Program-made: the position numbers and the translations under genes
Source: Escherichia phage ManiMatter_Bas94
Sequence record: PQ850617.1
DNA length: 64,000 bases
Strand: one strand, 5' to 3'
The notes under the pieces: generated by a model
What the model was told of the DNA's origin: nothing
The model's database searches: none
What the model saw: only the letters and a program-made list of their open reading frames with translations
Part shown: positions 17,177 to 64,000 of the stretch, piece after piece
Layout of the letters: every line of letters begins with the position of its first letter
How positions within the stretch are numbered: position 1 is the first letter of the stretch

Positions 17177-17206
17177 AAGGGGCTTCGTGCCCCTTTTATT
17201 GTTTTT
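17177..17206 (+). terminator. Rho-independent terminator
   Basis: GGGGC-TTCGT-GCCCC hairpin followed by TTTTATTGTTTTT. Confidence 0.6.
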
Positions 17207-17216
17207 GGAGGAACTT

Positions 17217-18185
17217 ATGGGTGCAGGTGGTTTTCGTAAGAACACTGGTCGCAATAACACCACACTCCCGTACAACGTTGGGTTTCTCAATAATGTACAG
17301 GACACAGAAACTTATAACGTAGCTGTTTATGATGAACTACAGAAAGTCAGCACAGCTACTAACCAAATGTTCCAAGCTATAGATGAAATTCACGAAGAGA
17401 TTGACGTTCGTATCAAAGCTCTTCATGCGATGAATCTACAATTTGATGAGCTTGAGAATAGAATTACTACAGAGATAGAGACAGCTATTGCCGATATCCA
17501 AACACAGATGGGGAATCTCTCCACTGAAGATATTTGGGATAATTCTGTTCAACCTCCTGTAAAATTAGAAAGCACTGTATCTGGCTTTAAGACGAGTATT
17601 GAAGGTAACACGACTAAGATTCAAACGGTAGAAGGTATTGTCAACGACCAAGGTCAAGAGATTGCTTTAGTTCAGACAGAGATTCAAAACATTAATGGAA
17701 GCCTATCTCAGTATATGAAGCTCTCTGAGTATGAAGCTACGTGGGGTGTTAACTCTTCTGTTAATGGTCAGTACGCTGGAGTTAAGCTAACTAACAATGG
17801 AACAAACAGTCAATTCCAAGTAACCGCTAACAAGTTTGTTGTCGGTGATGGTACGACAGGGAATACACCATTTGTGTTTGAGAATGGAAGAGCTAGGATG
17901 GAGTTCGCTGATATAAAGAACGTCAACATCACAACAGCTCAGGTTGCCAACGCTAGGATTCAGTGGGCACAGATTGATAACGTATCCATCTCCAACGCCC
18001 AAATTCAGAACTTGTCAGCGGATAAAATCACTGCTGGTTCTATGTGGGGTTCTAACTGGAGACTTACTGTTGGGGGTGACTTTGTTATGGGCGGCACAGG
18101 TGGGGCACAATTGTGGATGAATGGGAACAGGATAGACTTCTATGATGGAAGTGGTGCTCTGAGAATTAGGATAGGGAGTTGGTGA
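17217..18185 (+). CDS. Tail fibre-like protein
   Basis: Start moved to ATG 17217 (GGAGG RBS, downstream of terminator) instead of track start 17187; repeats of NxxIxNAQI type. Confidence 0.45.
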   Translation: MGAGGFRKNTGRNNTTLPYNVGFLNNVQDTETYNVAVYDELQKVSTATNQMFQAIDEIHEEIDVRIKALHAMNLQFDELENRITTEIETAIADIQTQMGNLSTEDIWDNSVQPPVKLESTVSGFKTSIEGNTTKIQTVEGIVNDQGQEIALVQTEIQNINGSLSQYMKLSEYEATWGVNSSVNGQYAGVKLTNNGTNSQFQVTANKFVVGDGTTGNTPFVFENGRARMEFADIKNVNITTAQVANARIQWAQIDNVSISNAQIQNLSADKITAGSMWGSNWRLTVGGDFVMGGTGGAQLWMNGNRIDFYDGSGALRIRIGSW

Positions 18186-18186
18186 T

Positions 18187-19206
18187 ATGGCATATGGAAT
18201 ATGGTGTCAACCGGTAGGTCCGGGGCCAGCCGCCCCTGCCTCTCTTTTTATAGATAGTAATTTAACATTTCCACAATATCTAGGAGCATACAATATATCT
18301 CCTTCGTGGAGTGCTAGAAATGCTTCTTTTAACGTAGGCTCTTTTGATGGTCAAGGTGAGTTATTAATTGTCCCGACTAGTAGACTTATTCAAGATTATT
18401 ATGTAGGGACAGATTTAATGCCTAGTTTTAGTTATGTAACAGGTATAGGGACTTCTGGACAAACAGTAAATATTAACATAGAGCCTGCTGGAGCTAGTGG
18501 TAACAATAACAGAAACTTCCCAATGTCTTTCCAAGCATATAAACTCTGGCCTAGAGGTAATAGAAGCTACGGAATAACTTTCTCAAACTCAGCAGATTTC
18601 TTTTCTATCTCTGATAGTGGGGTTGTTGGTCAGTGTGTTTGGGCGTACAGAGGGGCTGTAGGAGACGGTTTTACTGTCCCTAATGCTGGCCCCAACGCTC
18701 TAGTATTTGCCAACTGGAATCAGGGTGGGGTGTGTGCTTCTTACAACGCAAGCAACGGTCAAATGATCATAACCCACGATAGATCAAACCAGTCTGGCAG
18801 TAACAGAGGTGCAGTAATATATGATATGAGAATTGCTGTTTTTGCTAGTGGTGTGGGTGTACCAGAACATAATGGAGGTCTGAATATATACTCTCCCGGA
18901 ACTACAACTTGTGTATTCTCTACTTACAGGACTCCGTTTGCTATCAGCAGGTTCTTCCCATCTAGTGGGGGTTATACAGGTCTAGGCATTCCTATGATGT
19001 GTATGAATGTCACTAATGGAGCCATAACAGCGCAAGGTGGTGGATGGATGTGGGTTCATGAAAGATCTCATACAATGAGTGGTACGTCAGTAGGAACAGG
19101 CTTTGGCCCACTCGTGGCTAACTGGACTGACCGATACCCAATCAACGTTAACATAAACCTAGGATTCAATTACCCAATGTTGGAAGGTTCTTTAATTTAT
19201 GCATAA
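18187..19206 (+). CDS. Virion protein (hypothetical)
   Basis: 339-aa ORF translationally coupled to previous gene. Confidence 0.35.
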   Translation: MAYGIWCQPVGPGPAAPASLFIDSNLTFPQYLGAYNISPSWSARNASFNVGSFDGQGELLIVPTSRLIQDYYVGTDLMPSFSYVTGIGTSGQTVNINIEPAGASGNNNRNFPMSFQAYKLWPRGNRSYGITFSNSADFFSISDSGVVGQCVWAYRGAVGDGFTVPNAGPNALVFANWNQGGVCASYNASNGQMIITHDRSNQSGSNRGAVIYDMRIAVFASGVGVPEHNGGLNIYSPGTTTCVFSTYRTPFAISRFFPSSGGYTGLGIPMMCMNVTNGAITAQGGGWMWVHERSHTMSGTSVGTGFGPLVANWTDRYPINVNINLGFNYPMLEGSLIYA

Positions 19207-55639: not shown

Positions 55640-56836
55640 TTATTTTCCTAAAAATAATCCGCTCATAATACCATCCCACTCAGAGGATGGGATCACTGAA
55701 TACTCCGAACTTTGGTCCAGAGTTCCACTACTAAATCGCTGAACAATGTTATAGATGTTGAACAGGTCTTTAGCCTCAGTACGGATACCGTAGACTAATT
55801 TATCAGATGTTCTTTCATCTTTAGATACCCGACGAGCAAAATTAACCAGAAGGTTGTCACATTTAAGCGTTTCTGACCCACTCTCTACCAAATCAGGGTG
55901 CATCACAGGCAAGAACATCGAGTTATTGACTCGCAACTCTGCTGTTTCGTCATTCTCATAATGAATCCACTTAAAGTCTTCATCACGGAAGTGACCACAA
56001 CCATCTCTGTACGACTGCTGACGCCAAGGCACTTGAAATGCTTCAGCGTATTTATCAGCCATGCCGACTGTAAACAGCGACGCTGGGAAGATACAAGCAT
56101 CCCAATCATTACCAACCAGAGTTGCTTTAGTTTCCCCCAAGAGGTTAGTGTAAGTGCTAACCATTCGGGAGTAAATGTAAGCCTGAAGAATTGTCCAGCC
56201 TTCAATCAACCATTTATGAAGGAAGGTTTCAACTTGACTCTCTTCGTCTTCGCAATAGAAGGTTCGGTCTAGCATTAAATAGAACAGACAACGATCAGCA
56301 GGGATGTTCTCAGTTGCTACACCCATAAAACCTTTCTCGTGCCAGCGTAAACAGGAGGGACGATCTTTGTCCACAAATGCTTCCATAGCTTCCAGTACAG
56401 CACGAGGTGAGGTTTGGTATTCAGGGTTTTTACTATTCCAACGATCAATGTTGTTCTTAGGAGGTGTGTCTTCATCTTCATACGAACACCAACTTAAAGC
56501 TTCGGATACATGCTCTGCGTCATGCCAACGTCTAAAACCTAACATCTTCATGTGAGTTCCGGAGTTCCAGATATGCTTGATTTTACACATATCCATCTCT
56601 CGGCTTAACAGGAACTCTTCCCCATCAGCACTACGAACGTTAGCTTCTTCATGCCACACTCGAACGTGCATATTCCACCCATGAGTTGCCTCATACATAT
56701 TAGGGTCGAAGTATTCATATTCGTCGTCATCTTCATCAACGCCACCATTATAGTTGCGAAGCTGAAGGAATCCATAACAAGGAGGGTTAACCGTTAAAAC
56801 ATTACCTTCAGTATCTTCTAATGTTACTGGAAACAT
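55640..56836 (-). CDS. Hypothetical protein (cluster member)
   Basis: 398-aa ORF, acidic, Trp-rich. Confidence 0.4.
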   Translation of the reverse strand: MFPVTLEDTEGNVLTVNPPCYGFLQLRNYNGGVDEDDDEYEYFDPNMYEATHGWNMHVRVWHEEANVRSADGEEFLLSREMDMCKIKHIWNSGTHMKMLGFRRWHDAEHVSEALSWCSYEDEDTPPKNNIDRWNSKNPEYQTSPRAVLEAMEAFVDKDRPSCLRWHEKGFMGVATENIPADRCLFYLMLDRTFYCEDEESQVETFLHKWLIEGWTILQAYIYSRMVSTYTNLLGETKATLVGNDWDACIFPASLFTVGMADKYAEAFQVPWRQQSYRDGCGHFRDEDFKWIHYENDETAELRVNNSMFLPVMHPDLVESGSETLKCDNLLVNFARRVSKDERTSDKLVYGIRTEAKDLFNIYNIVQRFSSGTLDQSSEYSVIPSSEWDGIMSGLFLGK

Positions 56837-56847
56837 TATACCAACCT

Positions 56848-57210
56848 CTATTGGTTTTTAATCAACTCAATAGACTTACGGATATAAAGAATATCTCGGA
56901 AGTTTCTGTAGTTGTTCATAAATTGATGCTTCTGGAACTCAGCTTCTTCCAGAGCTTTCTTTGCGTCTGCGTAGTTTTTACGGGCAAGACATACAACCCG
57001 CTCTGGTAACATGTTTGCACGATGGATTAGATACTTGTGAGCTTTCATATTGCTTTGCTCACGAGCAATCTTACCTTTAGCAACTTTGATACCATTTGCA
57101 ATCCAAGCAAGTTCTTGCTCAAGCTCATCGTTGGACATTCCACCGAGGTTTGATGCAACCTTGTTCAGAGTTTCAATATTAACGTTGCCCTTAATGGGAC
57201 GTGTATTCAT
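56848..57210 (-). CDS. Hypothetical protein
   Basis: 120-aa ORF. Confidence 0.4.
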   Translation of the reverse strand: MNTRPIKGNVNIETLNKVASNLGGMSNDELEQELAWIANGIKVAKGKIAREQSNMKAHKYLIHRANMLPERVVCLARKNYADAKKALEEAEFQKHQFMNNYRNFRDILYIRKSIELIKNQ

Positions 57211-57212
57211 AC

Positions 57213-57365
57213 TTACTCCTGTTGTTTACACTCGTCAATAACCCACTGATAAGTGGATTGCCCAGAAAAGAAACACTGAATAAATCCAGATGTTCTCTGC
57301 GTTACCAGTGCTAGTGCACATATCACTACCGCTGCTGCTAGCAGTTTCATATCTAATTTAGACAT
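57213..57365 (-). CDS. Small secreted Cys-containing protein (50 aa)
   Basis: Manual translation MSKLDMKLLAAAVVICALALV... signal-like N-terminus. Confidence 0.3.
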   Translation of the reverse strand: MSKLDMKLLAAAVVICALALVTQRTSGFIQCFFSGQSTYQWVIDECKQQE

Positions 57366-57475
57366 ATTTCCTCTCTTTGAATTTAAAAAAGGACTCTCCG
57401 AAAAGAGCCAAACTTTAAATCCAAAAAAAGATATTACCCAATATCTGTGGATAACCTGCTCTTAAAATATCTATC

Positions 57476-57596
57476 CGACGGATGTTTGAGGAACACTCCT
57501 CGCCCTAGCATCGGCCCCATACGGGAAATAAATTAAGATTAGGTTAGTTGAGTCAGAATAACTCACATAGCCTTCTCCGGAAGAAGGCTATAGATG
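57476..57596 (-). repeat. Intergenic cassette, copy A (related to 60371-60485)
   Basis: Shares blocks cggatgtt(t/c)gag, c(g/t)ccctagc, gaggaacac, ctcacatagcc(t/c)tct + hairpin + ggctata with copy B; both immediately 3' of a - strand gene stop. Confidence 0.5.
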
Positions 57597-57830
57597 TTAC
57601 TCGCCTTTCTTAGCACGATCTTTGGCAGTTTTGCCAGTGCGGATGCGGTGTGAAACGTTAACCAGAGTGCCACCATCAACTACGGTAACGCTCTTGTTTT
57701 TAGCCAGATCAAACACAGCCTTCTCTGTGCCACCCAAGCGAATTTGCTTAGGTTCACTGAAGGTTTGGGTTGATTTAGATTGGAACTGGAACGGTTGACG
57801 GATTGCATCAATTGCACTTACTTTAGACAT
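57597..57830 (-). CDS. Hypothetical protein
   Basis: 77-aa ORF, AAGGA RBS. Confidence 0.4.
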   Translation of the reverse strand: MSKVSAIDAIRQPFQFQSKSTQTFSEPKQIRLGGTEKAVFDLAKNKSVTVVDGGTLVNVSHRIRTGKTAKDRAKKGE

Positions 57831-57848
57831 AGGGGAAATTCCTTAAAA

Positions 57849-57880
57849 AATCATGGCTGCGTAGAGGGAATTCCCTACGC
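57849..57880 (-). terminator. Stem-loop terminator
   Basis: GCGTAGGGAATTCCCTCTACGC palindrome followed on - strand by ...GATTTTTTAAGG. Confidence 0.45.
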
Positions 57881-57902
57881 AAATTAGGCCGCCTAAAAAG
57901 AG

Positions 57903-57920
57903 GCGTCATAGTACTAAAAG
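57903..57920. repeat. 18-bp motif GCGTCATAGTACTAAAAG (copy 1 of 2)
   Basis: Identical 18-mer at 63104-63121; both between a - strand stop codon and a terminator hairpin. Confidence 0.5.
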
Positions 57921-58056
57921 GAGGAGAGAAGAGGGCTTATTTAGCTACCTTTTTCTGTCCGTTTACGAACCAGATAATTGTTCCATCAGGTTGTCGTTGA
58001 CCAAAGCCTTTCTGGTTAATCATATCGTCATAAGAATATGCTTTACGTCTCATCTG

Positions 58057-58302
58057 TCACTCCTGAACAACTGACATACGAATCATTTCTACCGGAGTGT
58101 CACCTTTCATAACACCCAGCACACCAGTCAGAAGATTAACTGTAGTAATCCAGTCTTTTTCTACAGAGATTTTGCTGGATACATTGGCAACACGCATATG
58201 ATACTGAGGTGATGCTGTTCCTCTCTGAACTACGAAAGGGTTTCCGGGAATAATTGTAGCCAGCGAAACTGTGTTATCTTTAATCTTTGGGATGATTTTC
58301 AT
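58057..58302 (-). CDS. Hypothetical protein
   Basis: 81-aa ORF. Confidence 0.35.
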   Translation of the reverse strand: MKIIPKIKDNTVSLATIIPGNPFVVQRGTASPQYHMRVANVSSKISVEKDWITTVNLLTGVLGVMKGDTPVEMIRMSVVQE

Positions 58303-58310
58303 CTTGATTC

Positions 58311-58622
58311 CTATTTAAGTTTAAGGCTAACATTAAGGTGCATACACGCCCTGTTCTGTACAGCGGCATAACTTCTACCGAGCATGTCTGCCATTCTCTG
58401 AATAGGCATGAACCCAGCATTACGAATAACAAACTGATCTTCTTCTTCCGTCCACTTGACACGTAGAGAAGCCCTTGATATACCAAACTTGGTACAGGCT
58501 GTGTTAACAGCATTCTCTGTAACATTCATAATCTGAGCAACTTCTTGAACCGAATACTCTTTGATTAGTCTCCGAAGATTTTCAATCTGCATCGGAGTCC
58601 ATATAGTTCTTCGTGCTTTCAT
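58311..58622 (-). CDS. Hypothetical protein (possible DNA-binding, two W/E-rich helical repeats)
   Basis: 103 aa; repeats WTPMQIENLRRL... / WTEEEDQFVIRN... Confidence 0.35.
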   Translation of the reverse strand: MKARRTIWTPMQIENLRRLIKEYSVQEVAQIMNVTENAVNTACTKFGISRASLRVKWTEEEDQFVIRNAGFMPIQRMADMLGRSYAAVQNRACMHLNVSLKLK

Positions 58623-58917
58623 ATACCCTCCAATTAAACATTTATATAAGACTTGCTTAGATAAAGATTCAATAAAATAGGGGGAGGGGACGAATCCTCC
58701 CTTATCCTATTAATTAGTATTGCATGTAAGATCTAACAATCGGTTTCCTTTGTAGGAATAAGCGTTATGCTCATCCAGCACTAAACTCCCGCCCCCTTAG
58801 TGGGCTGGGTTATTAAAGGGTAACGCCCTTATGGGCTAGTTACGTGAATGTTAGTTTGATAGGAGATCTGAAGTCCTATCTCAAAGGACTCTCGTAAGAA
58901 TCCTTCACGATAAGCTC

Positions 58918-59205
58918 TTAATATACTAATCCGTGTAAGAGAAACACTCTATTAGTTAACTCTGCTTTAGCTCTGTAATAAGCCTTAGAACCTAACAGGC
59001 GGCTCTTAACAAAGAACTTGATGTCATTGCTTACGTCTTGTATTAAACGCTCCTGTACAGCTTCTGAGGAGCTATTAATTGAATCAATTAACACCTTTGT
59101 AGATGTGTAATTCACATCACCACTCCTTACCGGTTGTAGTTGTAGAGCCACCACACCACTGTGCATCAGATAAGGTTTTAGTCTCCTCATCCATTGCTGC
59201 ACCAT
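58918..59205 (-). CDS. Hypothetical protein
   Basis: 95-aa ORF; 5' end overlaps previous gene, true start uncertain. Confidence 0.3.
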   Translation of the reverse strand: MVQQWMRRLKPYLMHSGVVALQLQPVRSGDVNYTSTKVLIDSINSSSEAVQERLIQDVSNDIKFFVKSRLLGSKAYYRAKAELTNRVFLLHGLVY

Positions 59206-59398
59206 TCATGCATGAGATACCATTGTAACGCATATCAATTTCGCCAGAAGGAACCTTCTCACCTTTATGCCAGCGAGATACACAAATACCTTCCACTGCT
59301 ACTGCACACCATCCATCAGGACGGCTCTGTACGCAGCCTGTAAGGGCCACACAGACAATGAAGATACAGATTAAGGATATTACACCACTCCAACTCAT
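59117..59398 (-). CDS. Small Cys-rich lipoprotein
   Basis: Start set to ATG 59398 (GGAGGTG RBS); signal MSWSGVISLICIFIVCVALTGC with lipobox LTGC; mature part about 70 aa with 5 Cys. Confidence 0.5.
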   Translation of the reverse strand: MSWSGVISLICIFIVCVALTGCVQSRPDGWCAVAVEGICVSRWHKGEKVPSGEIDMRYNGISCMNGAAMDEETKTLSDAQWCGGSTTTTGKEW

Positions 59399-59421
59399 AA
59401 CACACCTCCAAGAGCTTCTAG

Positions 59422-59500
59422 TGAGGATGACAGGATTTGAACCTGCATACTCCAATTACTTCTTTAACGACCGCTTAGAAGGCGGGGAAGATACATCCTC
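59422..59500 (-). tRNA. tRNA-like element, possibly atypical tRNA-Arg(UCU)
   Basis: Perfect 7-bp acceptor stem GAGGATG/CATCCTC, canonical T-arm GCAGG-TTCAAAT-CCTGT, hairpin CCGC-CUUCUAA-GCGG with anticodon-loop-like UCU; no canonical D-arm found, 23-nt extra segment. Confidence 0.45.
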
Positions 59501-59541
59501 ATTAAGAATTCTCGTTAAAGCTGGTTTAAATCACATCAACC

Positions 59542-59793
59542 TCAAGCACAAGCAGGGAGAGTGATGATTTTATACTTGCCATCAAATTCTCCAAACAAAC
59601 CTAAGAATGTAGGACTATAAGTACCAGTACAAACAAACTCATCAAACAGTTCGTTATAGCTAGGCTTAATCTTCCAAGCCCATACATAACCCATCTTGTC
59701 AATTGCAATGTAACGAGTGTTTAGAGGAACAGTCATCATCACACCATCAACTTCGACCACTTTAGTGATTGGTGCAGCTTGGAAGTTTTTCAT
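59542..59793 (-). CDS. Hypothetical protein
   Basis: 83-aa ORF. Confidence 0.4.
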   Translation of the reverse strand: MKNFQAAPITKVVEVDGVMMTVPLNTRYIAIDKMGYVWAWKIKPSYNELFDEFVCTGTYSPTFLGLFGEFDGKYKIITLPACA

Positions 59794-59845
59794 ACTTTAC
59801 CTTTAATTAAAACAACAAAGGCCACCCAATCGGGCAGCCTTTCTT

Positions 59846-60055
59846 TTATTGACTCACACCACGAATCAAATGATTCTGTAGCATTTCATCTTCTGCATTA
59901 TAAAGGAATGCGAACATCAATTCCTTAGCCACATCTCTTGAGCAGTTAAGACACTTAGAGATTTGAGCTAGTTGCATATTACGTTCGGTGTGCTCCACTA
60001 AGGCAATGCGAATGATCTCTCGCATACCTATTACATGGGCTGTTTTAACCGGCAT
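59846..60055 (-). CDS. Small helical protein (possible regulator)
   Basis: Start at internal ATG 60055 overlapping stop of a 46-aa upstream ORF; track ORF 59846..60097 trimmed. Confidence 0.3.
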   Translation of the reverse strand: MPVKTAHVIGMREIIRIALVEHTERNMQLAQISKCLNCSRDVAKELMFAFLYNAEDEMLQNHLIRGVSQ

Positions 60056-60370
60056 AGGTCCAATTACCTTGCTTGTCACGGATAGTGGACATTGCATGAA
60101 CCCAGAAGCCTTCCAGTTTCAGAGCACCATTAGTTACTGCATCCATACGTTCAGGGCGGTTCATACGTTTGGTTGATACTTTCATACCTATCTCTCTTTG
60201 TTAGTGAAGGCATTATTGCCAGTTGATATAGCAGATAGCCCTATTAAAAAGGACTACCGACTATCTAAACTGGTGAAGACTCCCTACCCCTAGGAAGTCT
60301 CCTGAATCCCAAACCAATATGTACCCCTACATATCGGAAAGTCTACCGAAAATTAACAGGTTTTAGTCTA

Positions 60371-60485
60371 ACACCGGATGTTCGAGCAAGCTCTCCCTAG
60401 CGGTGTGGCATATGCCTGATTTAATAAGTTAATGAGGAACACCCTCACATAGCCCTCTGATAAGCACAAGGGCTATAAGTCGGTG
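60371..60485 (-). repeat. Intergenic cassette, copy B (related to 57476-57596)
   Basis: Same ordered sequence blocks and hairpin ATAGCCCT...AGGGCTAT as copy A, immediately 3' of gene 60486-60782. Confidence 0.5.
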
Positions 60486-60782
60486 TTACTTGTCGGCTTC
60501 AATCTCTTGATGCTTAGCTATAGCTACTCGCAAGTCCTCATTAGCACGAGTAAGGCGTAATACTTCATGGTTGAGATTCTGAAGACGCTTGTTTCTATCT
60601 TCAACTTGCGTAATAAGATCATTAAGAGTTGCTTTAACTTTCTCATTATACATCTCATCCACTCGGACTAGAGATTTGTACATTCTCTCCCAGCTTGCTG
60701 CTTTGTTCCTAAGGATAATAAATCCTATAACGCTGATAGTTAAACAGCTTACAAAAAGGAATTTATATATCTCTAAAGTCAT
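60486..60782 (-). CDS. Membrane-anchored coiled-coil protein
   Basis: 98 aa; N-terminal TM FLFVSCLTISVIGFIIL then heptad-rich helix. Confidence 0.4.
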   Translation of the reverse strand: MTLEIYKFLFVSCLTISVIGFIILRNKAASWERMYKSLVRVDEMYNEKVKATLNDLITQVEDRNKRLQNLNHEVLRLTRANEDLRVAIAKHQEIEADK

Positions 60783-60981
60783 ATTATTTACCCTTTATCA
60801 GAGATTAAAAGTAATATTATTTAAGTAAGTTATATTTAGTAAACTTATTTTCTAAGAAATTTTCAAAGGGTCTATATACAGAGCATTACCCATAGTCCCA
60901 GAACACTACCATCTTTTTCAATAAATTTACTAAGTGGTTGGTTTATAAAGGAATTTAGTTTGTCAAATCTGGCACTAGTGA

Positions 60982-61371
60982 TTATTCCCTAGAGCTATTA
61001 TCGAACACTAAATCACCACAATACATAGGATTGGCATACCATTTTGGCACCCCTTCGCTCTTACTCTGAAAGTAAGTCCCACTGTACAGCGGAACATAAT
61101 TCTTCTTAAGGGCACGTTTAGCAAGTCTCTCGCTTTCTCCAATGGCTTGCTTAGTCATCGGATTTTTATCACGAATCAGCTTTACATAACGTTTATAAGG
61201 TTTCTCCTGTTTTAATAGTACCGGAATCCACTCAAACTGGTTCTTTTGTCTTATCACCTGTTCAGCGGTCAGTTTTCGTTGGGCCATTCTATTTATCACG
61301 GTATCCGCAACCATAGCCTTACATGCGGTTGGCTGATTCCCTGCCTCATAATAAATAGTCAATGTCAACAT
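60982..61371 (-). CDS. Cell-wall hydrolase (SleB/CwlJ-like, putative)
   Basis: 129 aa; LTIYYEAGNQPTACKAMVADTVINRM resembles Hydrolase_2 N-terminal motif. Confidence 0.45.
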   Translation of the reverse strand: MLTLTIYYEAGNQPTACKAMVADTVINRMAQRKLTAEQVIRQKNQFEWIPVLLKQEKPYKRYVKLIRDKNPMTKQAIGESERLAKRALKKNYVPLYSGTYFQSKSEGVPKWYANPMYCGDLVFDNSSRE

Positions 61372-61625
61372 TAGCTGGGCCGTTGTTATCAGAACTTGCT
61401 ACCTCCTCTCAGGATAAAACACCTTTCATGTATGCCTTACTCGAAGCCCTCCTTGTGGCTTTTAGTATGGATTGCTTAGCCTTATTCTTAGCTTCTTCTG
61501 TCATTCCATCAAAAACACCGAGCTTAGTTAGCTCCTTACTAGGAGGCTTATAGGAAGGGTTTAAAGCATTAGATAAATTATGACCATAGGCATGACCACG
61601 GCACAATAAAGAAGAAAGATTAAGC

Positions 61626-61991
61626 CTATGGATTTACACATTGACCGTTACCGGATGCGATTTCATTCATTGACTCATCAAACAAGGTTAGGGATGAGCG
61701 CATCAAGTGATCGACCGTGATTTGTTTACCGGTAGTTTCATTTACCAGTTGAATAGTTTTATCATATGATTGCACATGATCGAAATCATTTACATGCAAA
61801 ATAATAACTTTAGGTGACTTTTTACCAGTCGAATAGTTTTCTATCAAATAGGTGCACTGTAAACCTTCCACCGTATCAGGGGAAAATGTTGCAGCCTTTA
61901 CACTACCCATAGCCGATAGGAGAACGCCCAGCAGTAGAACGACCAGAAAAAAACCTACAACCATTTTAATGATGAATTTAATAAACCACAT
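61626..61991 (-). CDS. Membrane/secreted protein
   Basis: 121 aa; N-terminal hydrophobic MVVGFFLVVLLLGVLLSAMGSVKA. Confidence 0.35.
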   Translation of the reverse strand: MWFIKFIIKMVVGFFLVVLLLGVLLSAMGSVKAATFSPDTVEGLQCTYLIENYSTGKKSPKVIILHVNDFDHVQSYDKTIQLVNETTGKQITVDHLMRSSLTLFDESMNEIASGNGQCVNP

Positions 61992-62093
61992 AACTATAAA
62001 CCTTTTAATCAGAGGATGTAAGAATAAAGCATATCAGCGACGAATAACGCCACTGTAACGACGAATAAGCAACGCCAGAAAAATCATTAAGCA

Positions 62094-62339
62094 TCATTTT
62101 AATCCGTGATTCAGTAGGTTCGCCAGTGATAGCCCACCGTCAAAATAAATTGAACGGAAGTCATCGCGGGTAATTTCAATCCCTACAGCAGATAACCAAT
62201 CTTTGGCCTTTTTAAAATCCATGACGCAGAAAGTAACGGTCGGGATTATTACATCACCAGCTTGCAAGCTAAACGCAATAAAAGTATCACACACAAAACA
62301 AGAAAAGCCGCTAGACAATTTAACTTCTTTGATAGCCAT
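62094..62339 (-). CDS. Hypothetical protein
   Basis: 81-aa ORF. Confidence 0.3.
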   Translation of the reverse strand: MAIKEVKLSSGFSCFVCDTFIAFSLQAGDVIIPTVTFCVMDFKKAKDWLSAVGIEITRDDFRSIYFDGGLSLANLLNHGLK

Positions 62340-62353
62340 AATTCTAACCCTTA

Positions 62354-62842
62354 TTATTTAGCACTGATGCAATTAGCTAGGTTGATGTGTACGGTATAAA
62401 CCGCATTATTCTCACTATTGTAAACCGTGGTGGCAAGCATTGATTCGTTTATCGGGCCATAACTGACTAGATTTGTAACAGCTTTCGCATGTTTGTAACG
62501 TTGTACAGTGCCAAATGTAACTAGTTCGGGATCGTTATCAGTGCGCTTTAATAGCAAATCATCATTGCCCTGATTATCTAGTGTTTTGGTACTAACGACC
62601 AGACCATCACGGGAAACGTTACTAAATTTAACCTTTAAGACGATTTGATTGGTGTCACTATCCGCACCGTTACAGATTAACCATTTGTTAGGTGCATCCT
62701 TCACGAACAAACTAGCGGCATTATTAGCAGAAGCAGAACTAGCGATAGCGTTGTCAGAAAAAGAAGTTACCAGTGCACTGACACCGATGGCTGTAACCAG
62801 TGCATAACTTGCCAGATTAATAGTCTGCATTACTTTCGCCAT
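62354..62842 (-). CDS. Secreted protein with signal peptide
   Basis: 162 aa; signal MAKVMQTINLASYALVTAIGVSALVTSFSDNAIA, two Cys in mature part. Confidence 0.45.
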   Translation of the reverse strand: MAKVMQTINLASYALVTAIGVSALVTSFSDNAIASSASANNAASLFVKDAPNKWLICNGADSDTNQIVLKVKFSNVSRDGLVVSTKTLDNQGNDDLLLKRTDNDPELVTFGTVQRYKHAKAVTNLVSYGPINESMLATTVYNSENNAVYTVHINLANCISAK

Positions 62843-63103
62843 TTTTGCTACCCCTTAGATAGAATCAATTAACTATTGCCACTTCTATAATACAAAGACG
62901 GTATTCAAGGTTACTACTCATACTTATACCTCCTGTTTTACGGGCATAAAAAAGCCCCAGCCGTAGCCGGGGCAAACCTGAAAGCAACGCATGACCGTTG
63001 CTATAAATACACTCGCAAATGCACTTACAGCAACGCAAAAAGCCGCTCAAAGGCGGCTATGTGGAAGCTTCAAATGGGGAGAGGGCACGACGCGGCAGAA
63101 AGA

Positions 63104-63121
63104 GCGTCATAGTACTAAAAG
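63104..63121. repeat. 18-bp motif GCGTCATAGTACTAAAAG (copy 2 of 2)
   Basis: Identical to 57903-57920; followed on - strand by hairpin AGCCGCC-TTTGAG-CGGCT + TTTTTGCG. Confidence 0.5.
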
Positions 63122-63138
63122 AGGGGGCTGCATTCCTA

Positions 63139-63582
63139 CTACTTAACCCTTGCTTCTTTGATGGGGTCAATATATTTTTCAACTCCCCACTTATGTTTGC
63201 TGTCTGCGTAGAATACATCAGGTGCGCATTGGCTTGTTTTAGGGAAGGCTTGCGGATCTTTGGTGCTCCCTTTAAACTTCTGTTTACCACGGGTGCGACC
63301 ATTACAGAAGATTTCTAGTTTCTTCTCCTCTTCTGTTTTAGCTCCCCCGCTCTTTAATAGTGAACGTTTATGATCAGCTAACAGCAACGCATCAGCACGA
63401 TGGGTACGATGGCCTACACGCTTGGGCACACTAGAAGGAATATGAGATTCAGCCTCAGCCCTTGCAGCACGACGCTTTAAACTACGCTTGCTAACATGAT
63501 TAGTTGCCTTTGGTTTCTCTTTCTCCAATTCAGAAATAGAAAAACAACGCCCGCCCTTCATGCTGATTTTAGATTTAGCCAC
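63139..63582 (-). CDS. Basic hypothetical protein
   Basis: 147-aa Lys/Arg-rich ORF. Confidence 0.35.
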   Translation of the reverse strand: MAKSKISMKGGRCFSISELEKEKPKATNHVSKRSLKRRAARAEAESHIPSSVPKRVGHRTHRADALLLADHKRSLLKSGGAKTEEEKKLEIFCNGRTRGKQKFKGSTKDPQAFPKTSQCAPDVFYADSKHKWGVEKYIDPIKEARVK

Positions 63583-63651
63583 TATCTTATTCCTTTCAGT
63601 GATAAGTTATATCGGGCAAGCCCATCAAGGCGATAGGCTTGAACAAATAAC

Positions 63652-63861
63652 TCAACCAAGTAAACCAAATGATTTCCAACTACGCAGTAAGATCGTACCA
63701 TCATCCATAGTTACGCATAATTTTAGTAGTCGCTTACTGGTACTGCTCACCGTTGTGATTCGTCCGGTTGTACATTTACCTTTATTGCTATAAAGATATA
63801 TAACACGATGGCCTAACAAACGAGATGGCGCTTTCTTAAATTCTGAAATGTTAGTGATCAT
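63652..63861 (-). CDS. Hypothetical protein
   Basis: 69-aa ORF. Confidence 0.3.
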   Translation of the reverse strand: MITNISEFKKAPSRLLGHRVIYLYSNKGKCTTGRITTVSSTSKRLLKLCVTMDDGTILLRSWKSFGLLG

Positions 63862-64000
63862 TATCCATATACCTTAACATGATTGATTCGACGTGAATGA
63901 TGATAAGAAGACTCAACAGCCATTGCCTTTAATTCTTCTTTTCGTTGGTTAGTGTGTACAATATCCCAATGATTATGATCGTGTTGGCGCTGTAATATCT

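Follow-up and report, generated by a model that had tools for sequence, protein, structure and literature searches.

A lipoprotein of the Rtp45 family in the right arm of a Kuravirus genome

Escherichia phage ManiMatter_Bas94 (sequence record PQ850617.1) was analysed over a stretch of 64,000 nucleotides, to which we refer as the window, and here we describe a small lipoprotein gene in the right arm of this stretch together with the protein that we propose as its partner, the orthologue of gp19 of phage SU10. The window comes from a Kuravirus, a phiEco32/SU10-like podophage (Gordonclarkvirinae). When the region from 56.8 to 63.0 kb was used in a megablast search, it matched 109 phage records, nearly all from Escherichia podophages of the genus Kuravirus (phiEco32, SU10 and LAMP types), the closest being the BASEL phage JacquesWildberger Bas92 with 97.5% identity. 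The GC skew changes sign near 28 kb of the window. Structural genes run rightward in the left arm, and in the right arm all genes named in an initial annotation of this DNA lie on the minus strand. That annotation had put forward five small open reading frames (ORFs) as candidate superinfection-exclusion or envelope-remodelling factors; we found all five, on this strand and with the boundaries listed below and in a later section. The genes at the centre of our analysis are the following.

59117-59398, minus strand: Rtp45-family (PF24052) outer-membrane lipoprotein, predicted LptDE-binding superinfection-exclusion factor (93-residue precursor; profile match and motifs)
18187-19206, plus strand: DUF6453 protein of 339 residues, proposed needle-tip receptor-binding protein and partner of the lipoprotein (PF20051, 92.5 bits; PDB sequence match and fold match)
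17187-18185, plus strand: tail needle, orthologue of SU10 gp18, presumed attachment site of the DUF6453 protein (PF09327, E=3e-26; BLASTP)

The lipoprotein gene starts with an ATG at 59398, with a GGAGG Shine-Dalgarno sequence about 8 nt upstream. A longer ORF initiated by TTG (to 59455) was rejected as the start, as it overlaps a tRNA-like gene and all homologues begin with MSWGG. The cysteine-rich lipoprotein with an LTGC lipobox that the initial annotation had described is borne out: the N-terminal hydrophobic core reaches 2.75 (hydropathy is given throughout as the Kyte-Doolittle (KD) 19-residue maximum) and is followed by the lipobox L19-T20-G21-C22, of which G21 and C22 are invariant in the family alignment. 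There are seven cysteines in the precursor and five in the mature form of about 72 residues, including the lipidated Cys22; the mature protein contains a conserved Cys31-Cys39 pair and a Kuravirus-specific insert with Cys63 and Cys82. The Pfam family PF24052 ('Phage_lipoprotein') matched the protein with E=1.1e-35 and 121.9 bits (cut-off 27) over profile positions 1-80 of 80, and because of this strong match we judge that 59117-59398 is not a chance ORF. Close relatives formed only 13 clusters in a large protein collection, every one of them with a PF24052 domain.

Searching the PDB with a profile of these relatives returned one solved structure, chain D of 9RPS (E=7.6e-20), a cryo-EM structure of the siphophage Rtp protein Rtp45 with Shigella LptDE and LptM (PMC12685063). 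Pairwise, the lipoprotein and Rtp45 share 42% identity over 66 residues (E=1e-19), which exceeds the 35% between Rtp45 and the lipoprotein of the LptD-dependent phage Oekolampad; Rtp45 itself scored 128 bits against PF24052, and a search in the opposite direction, from Rtp45, recovered Kuravirus genes with 40-49% identity. When Kuravirus and siphophage proteins were aligned jointly, they had in common the lipidated cysteine, Cys31 and Cys39, the hairpin motif VPxGExDxRYxG and a C-terminal SG..TGKEW. Cys31 and Cys39 are invariant and align with Cys30 and Cys38 of Rtp45, and the best-conserved part of the Kuravirus protein is the Rtp45 core, including the hairpin motif and the strand that in Rtp45 pairs with LptD residues 318-323. 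These alignments clearly identify Rtp45 as a homologue of the lipoprotein.

In phage Rtp, Rtp45 is described as the lipoprotein responsible for superinfection exclusion; it is located at the periplasmic rim of LptD, between LptE and LptM (PMC12685063). Its residues 30-35 form a beta-sheet with LptD 318-323, it contains a Cys30-Cys38 disulfide, and its hairpin extends up the LptD lumen; extracellular loop 4 is shifted by up to 20 Å and the phage receptor-binding protein cannot dock (PMC12685063). Podophages are not mentioned in that paper (PMC12685063). Two other exclusion lipoproteins were considered as relatives, and neither was supported. A family-profile search of all PDB chains at E<=10 returned Rtp45 and no chain of T5 Llp, for which a crystal structure with FhuA is published, and T1 Cor reached 17.7 bits against PF24052 (cut-off 27), with an hhalign probability of 54% and an alignment that covers mostly the signal peptide. 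The suggestion of the initial annotation that an early lipoprotein blocks a receptor as T5 Llp does can be kept for the function, since the protein is a homologue of Rtp45, and has to be given up for the family, as Llp is no relative; the likely target is LptD, not FhuA. In essence, its interpretation holds for one of the five genes; for the other four, which stay candidates, our results speak neither for nor against a role in exclusion or envelope remodelling. It missed both the receptor-binding homologue in the same genome, which is the decisive context, and the tRNA-like gene upstream of the lipoprotein gene.

The placement of the lipoprotein gene in an 'early region', also part of the initial annotation, is taken over from the SU10 literature: right-arm genes CDS69-125 of SU10 were classed as early by analogy with phiEco32, and the orthologue of the lipoprotein gene is CDS104, which by the same analogy would make it early in the window as well. 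A scan of 56500-64000 for sigma-70-like promoters found 13 sites, compared with 19 +/- 3.7 in shuffles; there was no enrichment, and the scan is uninformative on timing. The position of the gene also bears on whether the protein might be the o-spanin subunit of the phage or a generic envelope protein with no receptor role. It is a small, cysteine-containing outer-membrane lipoprotein, as o-spanins are, but its gene belongs to the early block and is separated by 40 kb from the holin and lysis genes next to the tail genes, and there is no overlapping or adjacent ORF for an i-spanin-like partner among its neighbours. Together with the strong membership in the Rtp45 family, this leads us to reject a spanin role and to regard the whole explanation as highly improbable.

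The gene for a homologue of siphophage receptor-binding proteins adjoins the tail-needle gene

Siphophages encode the Rtp45-type protein next to gpJ, directly ahead of the receptor-binding protein. A tblastn search of the window with one such receptor-binding protein gave a match at 18370-19173 on the plus strand, within the 339-residue protein encoded by 18187-19206. DUF6453, to which this protein belongs, is also matched by Rtp44, G8, pSf-1 gp83 and mEp021 gp80. The orthologue in SU10 is gp19, annotated as 'hypothetical', and we use this name for the protein below. Its sole sequence match in the PDB was 9RPT_C, with E=1e-10 for the single sequence and E=7e-19 for a profile of the Kuravirus family, which aligned end to end; in this structure, chain C is the receptor-binding protein of Oekolampad, lodged in an open LptDE barrel. 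An AlphaFold2 model of the protein (pLDDT 75.5, pTM 0.77) pointed to the same relative, since 9RPT_C was the only fold match in Foldseek (E=8e-12, target-normalised TM 0.73), followed by a next hit with E=0.04 and a TM of about 0.2.

A single base separates the start of the gene from the stop codon of the needle gene (PF09327). The coiled coil and the Phage_Tail_Tip domain of the needle are homologous to the C-terminal 200-270 residues of gpJ of Rtp and T1 (BLASTP alignments to residues 905-1107 of Rtp43 and 892-1166 of T1 gp33), and it is this C-terminal part of the siphophage gpJ that is thought to carry the separate receptor-binding protein.

When the window was compared with SU10, gp16, gp17, gp18, gp20, gp21 and gp22 were 92-97% identical, whereas gp19 was only 45% identical. 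Metagenomic alleles of the protein form a continuum from 98 to 42% identity. Family members agree in the first 20 residues and in two internal blocks, and vary elsewhere. Such hypervariability is the usual signature of a host-range determinant. Aligned with SU10 gp19 (5559-6590 of L009), 18187-19206 appears as a sharply bounded hypervariable cassette. We also observed that the conserved blocks (residues 1-20, 121-160 and 221-240) partly overlap segments of low confidence in the AlphaFold2 model (1-27, 122-148 and 229-231), and these overlapping segments may be interaction surfaces.

The lipoprotein and DUF6453 families occur together

We then asked how the two families are distributed, using 26 IMG/VR contigs with a homologue of the lipoprotein, 21 from siphophages and 5 from Kuraviruses. 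Both families were present in 26 of the 26 contigs. All 21 siphophage contigs contained a DUF6453 ORF within the 10-kb flanks of the lipoprotein gene, directly downstream of it at 18 loci and about 10 kb off in three Webervirus-like contigs (L020-L022), and the five Kuravirus contigs were exactly the five that had been found independently with the Kuravirus DUF6453 profile. In phage T1, which uses FhuA, neither PF24052 nor DUF6453 was matched above threshold, which agrees with the observation of the BASEL study that each receptor has its own type of locus.

Adjacency of the lipoprotein gene and the receptor-binding gene downstream of gpJ is typical, not universal, in the Rtp45-type family. In the window, the two genes are 40 kb apart and on opposite strands. 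Klebsiella Weberviruses (L004, which is Klebsiella phage FZ10, and L020-L022) likewise have members of both families, with about 10 kb between the two genes and the lipoprotein gene placed among genes of DNA metabolism, and because of this the splitting of the module is not unique to Kuraviruses. LptD may be a receptor of these Klebsiella phages, too.

LptD as candidate receptor and exclusion target of Kuraviruses

On the way in which Gordonclarkvirinae bind their host, up to the terminal receptor, the BASEL study reported only dependence on O-antigen and an unidentified target of the short fibres. Since lptD is essential, knockout screens would miss LptD as a receptor. We consider it likely that the lipoprotein is an exclusion factor of the Rtp45 family that binds LptDE, and that its partner gp19 makes LptD the terminal receptor of Kuraviruses.

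According to this model, the lipoprotein gene would be transcribed with the early genes and its product would take the standard E. coli pathway, being exported by Sec, lipidated at Cys22 and cut by signal peptidase II. Because the residue at position +2 is Val and not Asp, the Lol system would be expected to deliver the protein to the inner leaflet of the outer membrane. There, as homology to Rtp45 suggests, it would bind the periplasmic rim of the lipopolysaccharide (LPS) translocon LptDE, push extracellular loop 4 outward and hold LptD closed to the phage receptor-binding protein. Infection by incoming Kuraviruses, and probably also by LptD-dependent siphophages, could then not be completed, and progeny would not be wasted on the debris of lysed cells. 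On the side of the virion, gp19 would sit on the tip of the gpJ-like needle, and LptD would serve as the terminal receptor after the long fibres have bound O-antigen. On balance, we lean towards a specific arrangement in which gp19 is a needle-tip receptor-binding protein whose receptor is shut early from the periplasm by the Rtp45-like lipoprotein, such that gpJ tip, receptor-binding protein and exclusion lipoprotein, which make up the whole central-fibre module of siphophages, would have moved onto the nozzle of a podophage and been split into a late and an early part.

The same binding mode lends itself to a different purpose, namely that the lipoprotein mainly alters LptDE for host takeover, for example by slowing the export of LPS and O-antigen, which would keep progeny from being trapped or weaken the envelope before lysis, and that exclusion is a side effect. 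The Rtp45 hairpin in the LptD lumen locks a closed conformation and could plausibly impede LPS transport, adsorption of the phage depends on O-antigen, and several other envelope-directed proteins are encoded nearby. However, co-overexpression of Rtp45 and LptDE was tolerated well enough for the complex to be purified, and the family always travels with a receptor-binding protein, which fits masking of a receptor better. We regard host takeover as the main function as improbable.

Several points weigh against a role of LptD as the Kuravirus receptor, and the first concerns the degree of divergence. The identity of gp19 to siphophage receptor-binding proteins is about 25%, and by sequence the receptor could have changed. 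In addition, Kuravirus lipoproteins differ from Rtp45 in an extra variable insert of 18-35 residues bracketed by Cys63 and Cys82. Both features would fit if the fold had been kept while the lipoprotein came to bind another outer-membrane protein and the diverged gp19 another receptor, in which case the module is conserved without being specific for LptD; moreover, DUF6453 proteins are taken here as specific for LptD from a few characterised phages, with T1 as the one negative control. On the other hand, what Kuravirus lipoproteins conserve best is the Rtp45 core, with its hairpin motif and the strand pairing with LptD 318-323, and Rtp44 and the Oekolampad receptor-binding protein are only 33% identical, yet both come from LptD-dependent phages. 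We regard such a change of receptor as improbable, on a par with host takeover.

The second set of points concerns gp19 and the published data. SU10 gp19 was not among the 34 proteins identified by mass spectrometry, in which gp16-18 and gp20-24 were found, and the paper on the SU10 virion structure and its supplement do not mention it. A low copy number (one to three per virion) and few suitable tryptic peptides may account for the gap in the proteome; gp19 has five tryptic peptides of 7-25 residues, and gp22 has only two, yet was detected. The reported Kuravirus-resistant mutants had lost O-antigen and not LptD function. Our literature search returned no paper linking Kuravirus, phiEco32 or Gordonclarkvirinae to LptD as a receptor, and no experiment on any Kuravirus lipoprotein or gp19. 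Finally, alleles of the lipoprotein and of the receptor-binding candidate do not co-vary and instead reassort: relative to the window, SU10 and phiEco32 combine 45% identity in gp19 with 91-92% in the lipoprotein, and an ECBP2-like contig combines 90% in gp19 with 63% in the lipoprotein. Such reassortment would be possible if the lipoprotein acted on the conserved periplasmic side of its target irrespective of the contacts made outside the cell, but it gives no positive support for this.

These observations would be accommodated if the lipoprotein bound LptDE for competition between phages only, directed against the abundant LptD-dependent siphophages of the same host, with Kuraviruses not using LptD and gp19 being a non-virion or assembly protein. 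The absence of gp19 from the proteome and structure of the SU10 virion and the independent reassortment of the alleles favour such a view, as does the published model, which assigns terminal binding to the short fibres. It is difficult to reconcile with the co-occurrence in 26 of 26 contigs, which is hard to explain if the families are functionally unrelated in Kuraviruses, and with the properties of gp19 itself, which is encoded inside the tail-gene block directly after the gpJ-like needle, is hypervariable as receptor-binding proteins are, and has a receptor-binding protein as its sole structural relative. We think a role confined to competition unlikely, and retain LptD as the shared target of the lipoprotein and gp19 as our working model.

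The lipoprotein belongs to an exclusion family with a characterised structure and represents it in a new genomic and viral setting. Combined with gp19, it yields a concrete and apparently unpublished hypothesis for the terminal receptor of Kuraviruses, which are often isolated and characterised as candidates for therapy against pathogenic E. coli and for which current models name O-antigen and an unspecified surface target of the short fibres. If the model is true, an unplaced tail protein of SU10, gp19, gets a name, host-recognition modules move between siphophages and podophages, and a second, unrelated group of phages attacks an essential and highly constrained outer-membrane protein. It would also bear on 'phage steering' and on predicting whether Kuraviruses and LptD-dependent siphophages combined in a cocktail are subject to cross-resistance or exclude one another.

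A tRNA-like gene upstream of the lipoprotein gene

The start of the lipoprotein gene is preceded at a distance of 23 nt by a further element:

59422-59500, minus strand: non-canonical tRNA(UCU)-like gene of 79 nt (Rfam tRNA match, 33.4 bits)

ARAGORN did not detect this gene. Of the usual tRNA arms, it lacks the D-arm and keeps the acceptor, anticodon and T arms; the anticodon is UCU, in a loop that reads CUUCUAA, and the anticodon stem is followed by a conserved insert of 22 nt. At the same position, a canonical tRNA-Arg(UCU) is found in most Kuraviruses (phiEco32, SU10, LAMP and others). The odd element was present in 144 records, which include myophages of the phi92-like group and the Vequintavirinae, where it is part of tRNA arrays, as well as Klebsiella, Listeria and Streptomyces phages, and one record annotates it as 'tRNA-OTHER'. 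Across four distinct sequences, 98.8% of the proposed pairs form, compared with 42-52% in shifted controls, and 10 of the 20 pairs show compensatory changes, which support the helices.

In Bas92 (about 4170-4700 of L001), a gene for an HNH endonuclease adjoins an intact tRNA-Arg(UCU), and an apparent leftover 3' half of a second, LAMP-type tRNA-Arg, consisting of the anticodon and T arms, lies between the tRNA and the lipoprotein gene. Because of this HNH gene and leftover half, the locus suggests traffic of homing endonucleases. The odd element also adjoins an HNH gene in Salmonella phage SSBI34.

Other small proteins of the early block

Besides the lipoprotein, the early block encodes the four other proteins named in the initial annotation and one that it did not include.

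62354-62842, minus strand: 162-residue predicted exported protein, 8-stranded beta-barrel (conserved N-terminus, AlphaFold2)
61626-61991, minus strand: 121-residue protein with an N-terminal signal anchor or signal peptide (KD 2.93)
60982-61371, minus strand: 129-residue SleB/CwlJ-type Hydrolase_2 protein without an export signal (Pfam, 33.5 bits; cut-off 27)
60486-60782, minus strand: 98-residue protein, a single N-terminal transmembrane segment and then a coiled-coil-like region, absent from the initial annotation (hydropathy)
57213-57365, minus strand: 50-residue protein, small, exported or membrane-anchored (N-terminal hydrophobic stretch)

Our signal-peptide calls draw on hydropathy, on motifs, on conservation and, for one protein, on a disordered N-terminus in the model, and checks of hydropathy and motifs cannot separate a cleaved signal peptide from a membrane anchor. 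Within this limit, the secreted and membrane proteins of the initial annotation (57213-57365, 61626-61991 and 62354-62842) do have N-terminal hydrophobic segments, and three of the four other named proteins are probably small exported proteins, one of them a beta-barrel. The 162-residue protein has a conserved, signal-like N-terminus that ends in the cleavage motif A-I-A34. In its AlphaFold2 model, residues 1-38 are disordered and are followed by a confident 8-stranded beta-barrel (pLDDT of about 90 for residues 41-160). When this model was compared with the PDB using Foldseek, only generic 8-stranded barrels (designed barrels, lipocalin 2) were found, with a TM of 0.4-0.57. Among the homologues Cys57 is invariant and Cys158 nearly so. 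The protein is confined to Kuravirus-like contigs and is unusually divergent: between phages that otherwise resemble each other closely, its identity ranges from 64 to 98%, and in some alleles the N-terminus carries a different extension (MNTRIR...). Such fast evolution hints at a part in interactions with the host or competing phages.

The 121-residue protein has a 20-residue hydrophobic segment followed by V-K-A, with two cysteines in the presumed periplasmic part, and the 50-residue protein (KD 2.18) has three cysteines, two of them in its C-terminal part, and matches phrog_13048. Neither has informative homologues, and NCBIfam gave no match for any envelope protein of the region. The wall hydrolase of the initial annotation retains its assignment in that the Hydrolase_2 match covers profile positions 2-85 of 100; it has no N-terminal hydrophobic segment (KD maximum 0.19), and the lack of an export signal argues against a direct early action on the wall. 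A sequence search of the PDB gave no match and NCBIfam no name for it. It is not the lysis-cassette enzyme of the phage; in SU10, the holin and lysis genes adjoin the tail genes, far from the SleB-like gene. Neither this protein nor the other exported proteins of the region are explained by the LptD model.

We rejected the PHROG labels 'terminase', 'DNA helicase' and 'polymerase' for the 121-residue, the 98-residue and an 81-residue protein (62094-62339), respectively, as implausible for their size and layout, and likewise the label 'tail protein' on a 41-residue ORF of Bas92. PHROG-derived labels on such proteins of 81-121 residues with membrane segments are propagating through new genome records of relatives.

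On the minus strand of 56500-64000 we counted 14 terminator-like hairpins (for example at 62973-62954, 59842-59817 and 57882-57857), compared with 5.2 +/- 2.3 in shuffles. Because of this enrichment, the early block appears to be divided into several transcription units.

Comparison with known systems

The SleB-like protein (60982-61371) resembles the SleB/CwlJ spore-cortex enzymes (Hydrolase_2) in its domain match above the Pfam threshold and in an N-terminal 'IYYEAG', which we take to resemble the SleB motif that holds the catalytic Glu. Unlike these enzymes, it has neither a peptidoglycan-binding domain nor a signal peptide, and it is encoded by an early phage gene outside the lysis cassette.

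Among exclusion lipoproteins, the FhuA blockers of the Cor group (T1, phi80, N15 and HK022) are comparable in that they are small, are encoded near the gpJ/receptor-binding locus and exclude phages that use the same receptor; the receptor-binding locus of T1 differs in having no DUF6453 protein. T5 Llp is the functional analogue named in the initial annotation. It, too, is small, is anchored as a lipoprotein in the outer membrane, has a stabilising disulfide and comes from a lytic phage; it grips the periplasmic face of the phage's own receptor and alters the extracellular loops such that the receptor-binding protein cannot dock. It differs in its target, the TonB-dependent transporter FhuA, on which it acts allosterically via the plug, and in the position of llp next to the gene for pb5.

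The closest known system is that of Rtp and Oekolampad (Bas18). Compared with the Oekolampad receptor-binding protein and Rtp44, gp19 aligns end to end, shares a fold with no other match in the PDB and adjoins a homologue of the gpJ tip; it differs in its low identity to these proteins and in that its gene follows, in the same direction, the gene for the short needle protein of a podophage tail. The Kuravirus lipoprotein, in turn, is like Rtp45 and its Oekolampad relative in Pfam family, lipobox, disulfide pair, hairpin motif and the C-terminal KEW, and wherever Rtp45-type lipoproteins were found, including those of Kuraviruses, a DUF6453 protein was encoded in the same genome. The carrier of the Kuravirus protein is a podophage and that of Rtp45 a siphophage. 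Whereas the siphophage gene lies immediately upstream of the receptor-binding gene, that of Kuraviruses is in the early block, on the opposite strand and far from its partner, and, unlike the Rtp45 gene, it is directly downstream of a tRNA-Arg(UCU) or tRNA-like gene. By analogy with Rtp45, the Kuravirus lipoprotein presumably forms the same periplasmic clamp on LptDE.

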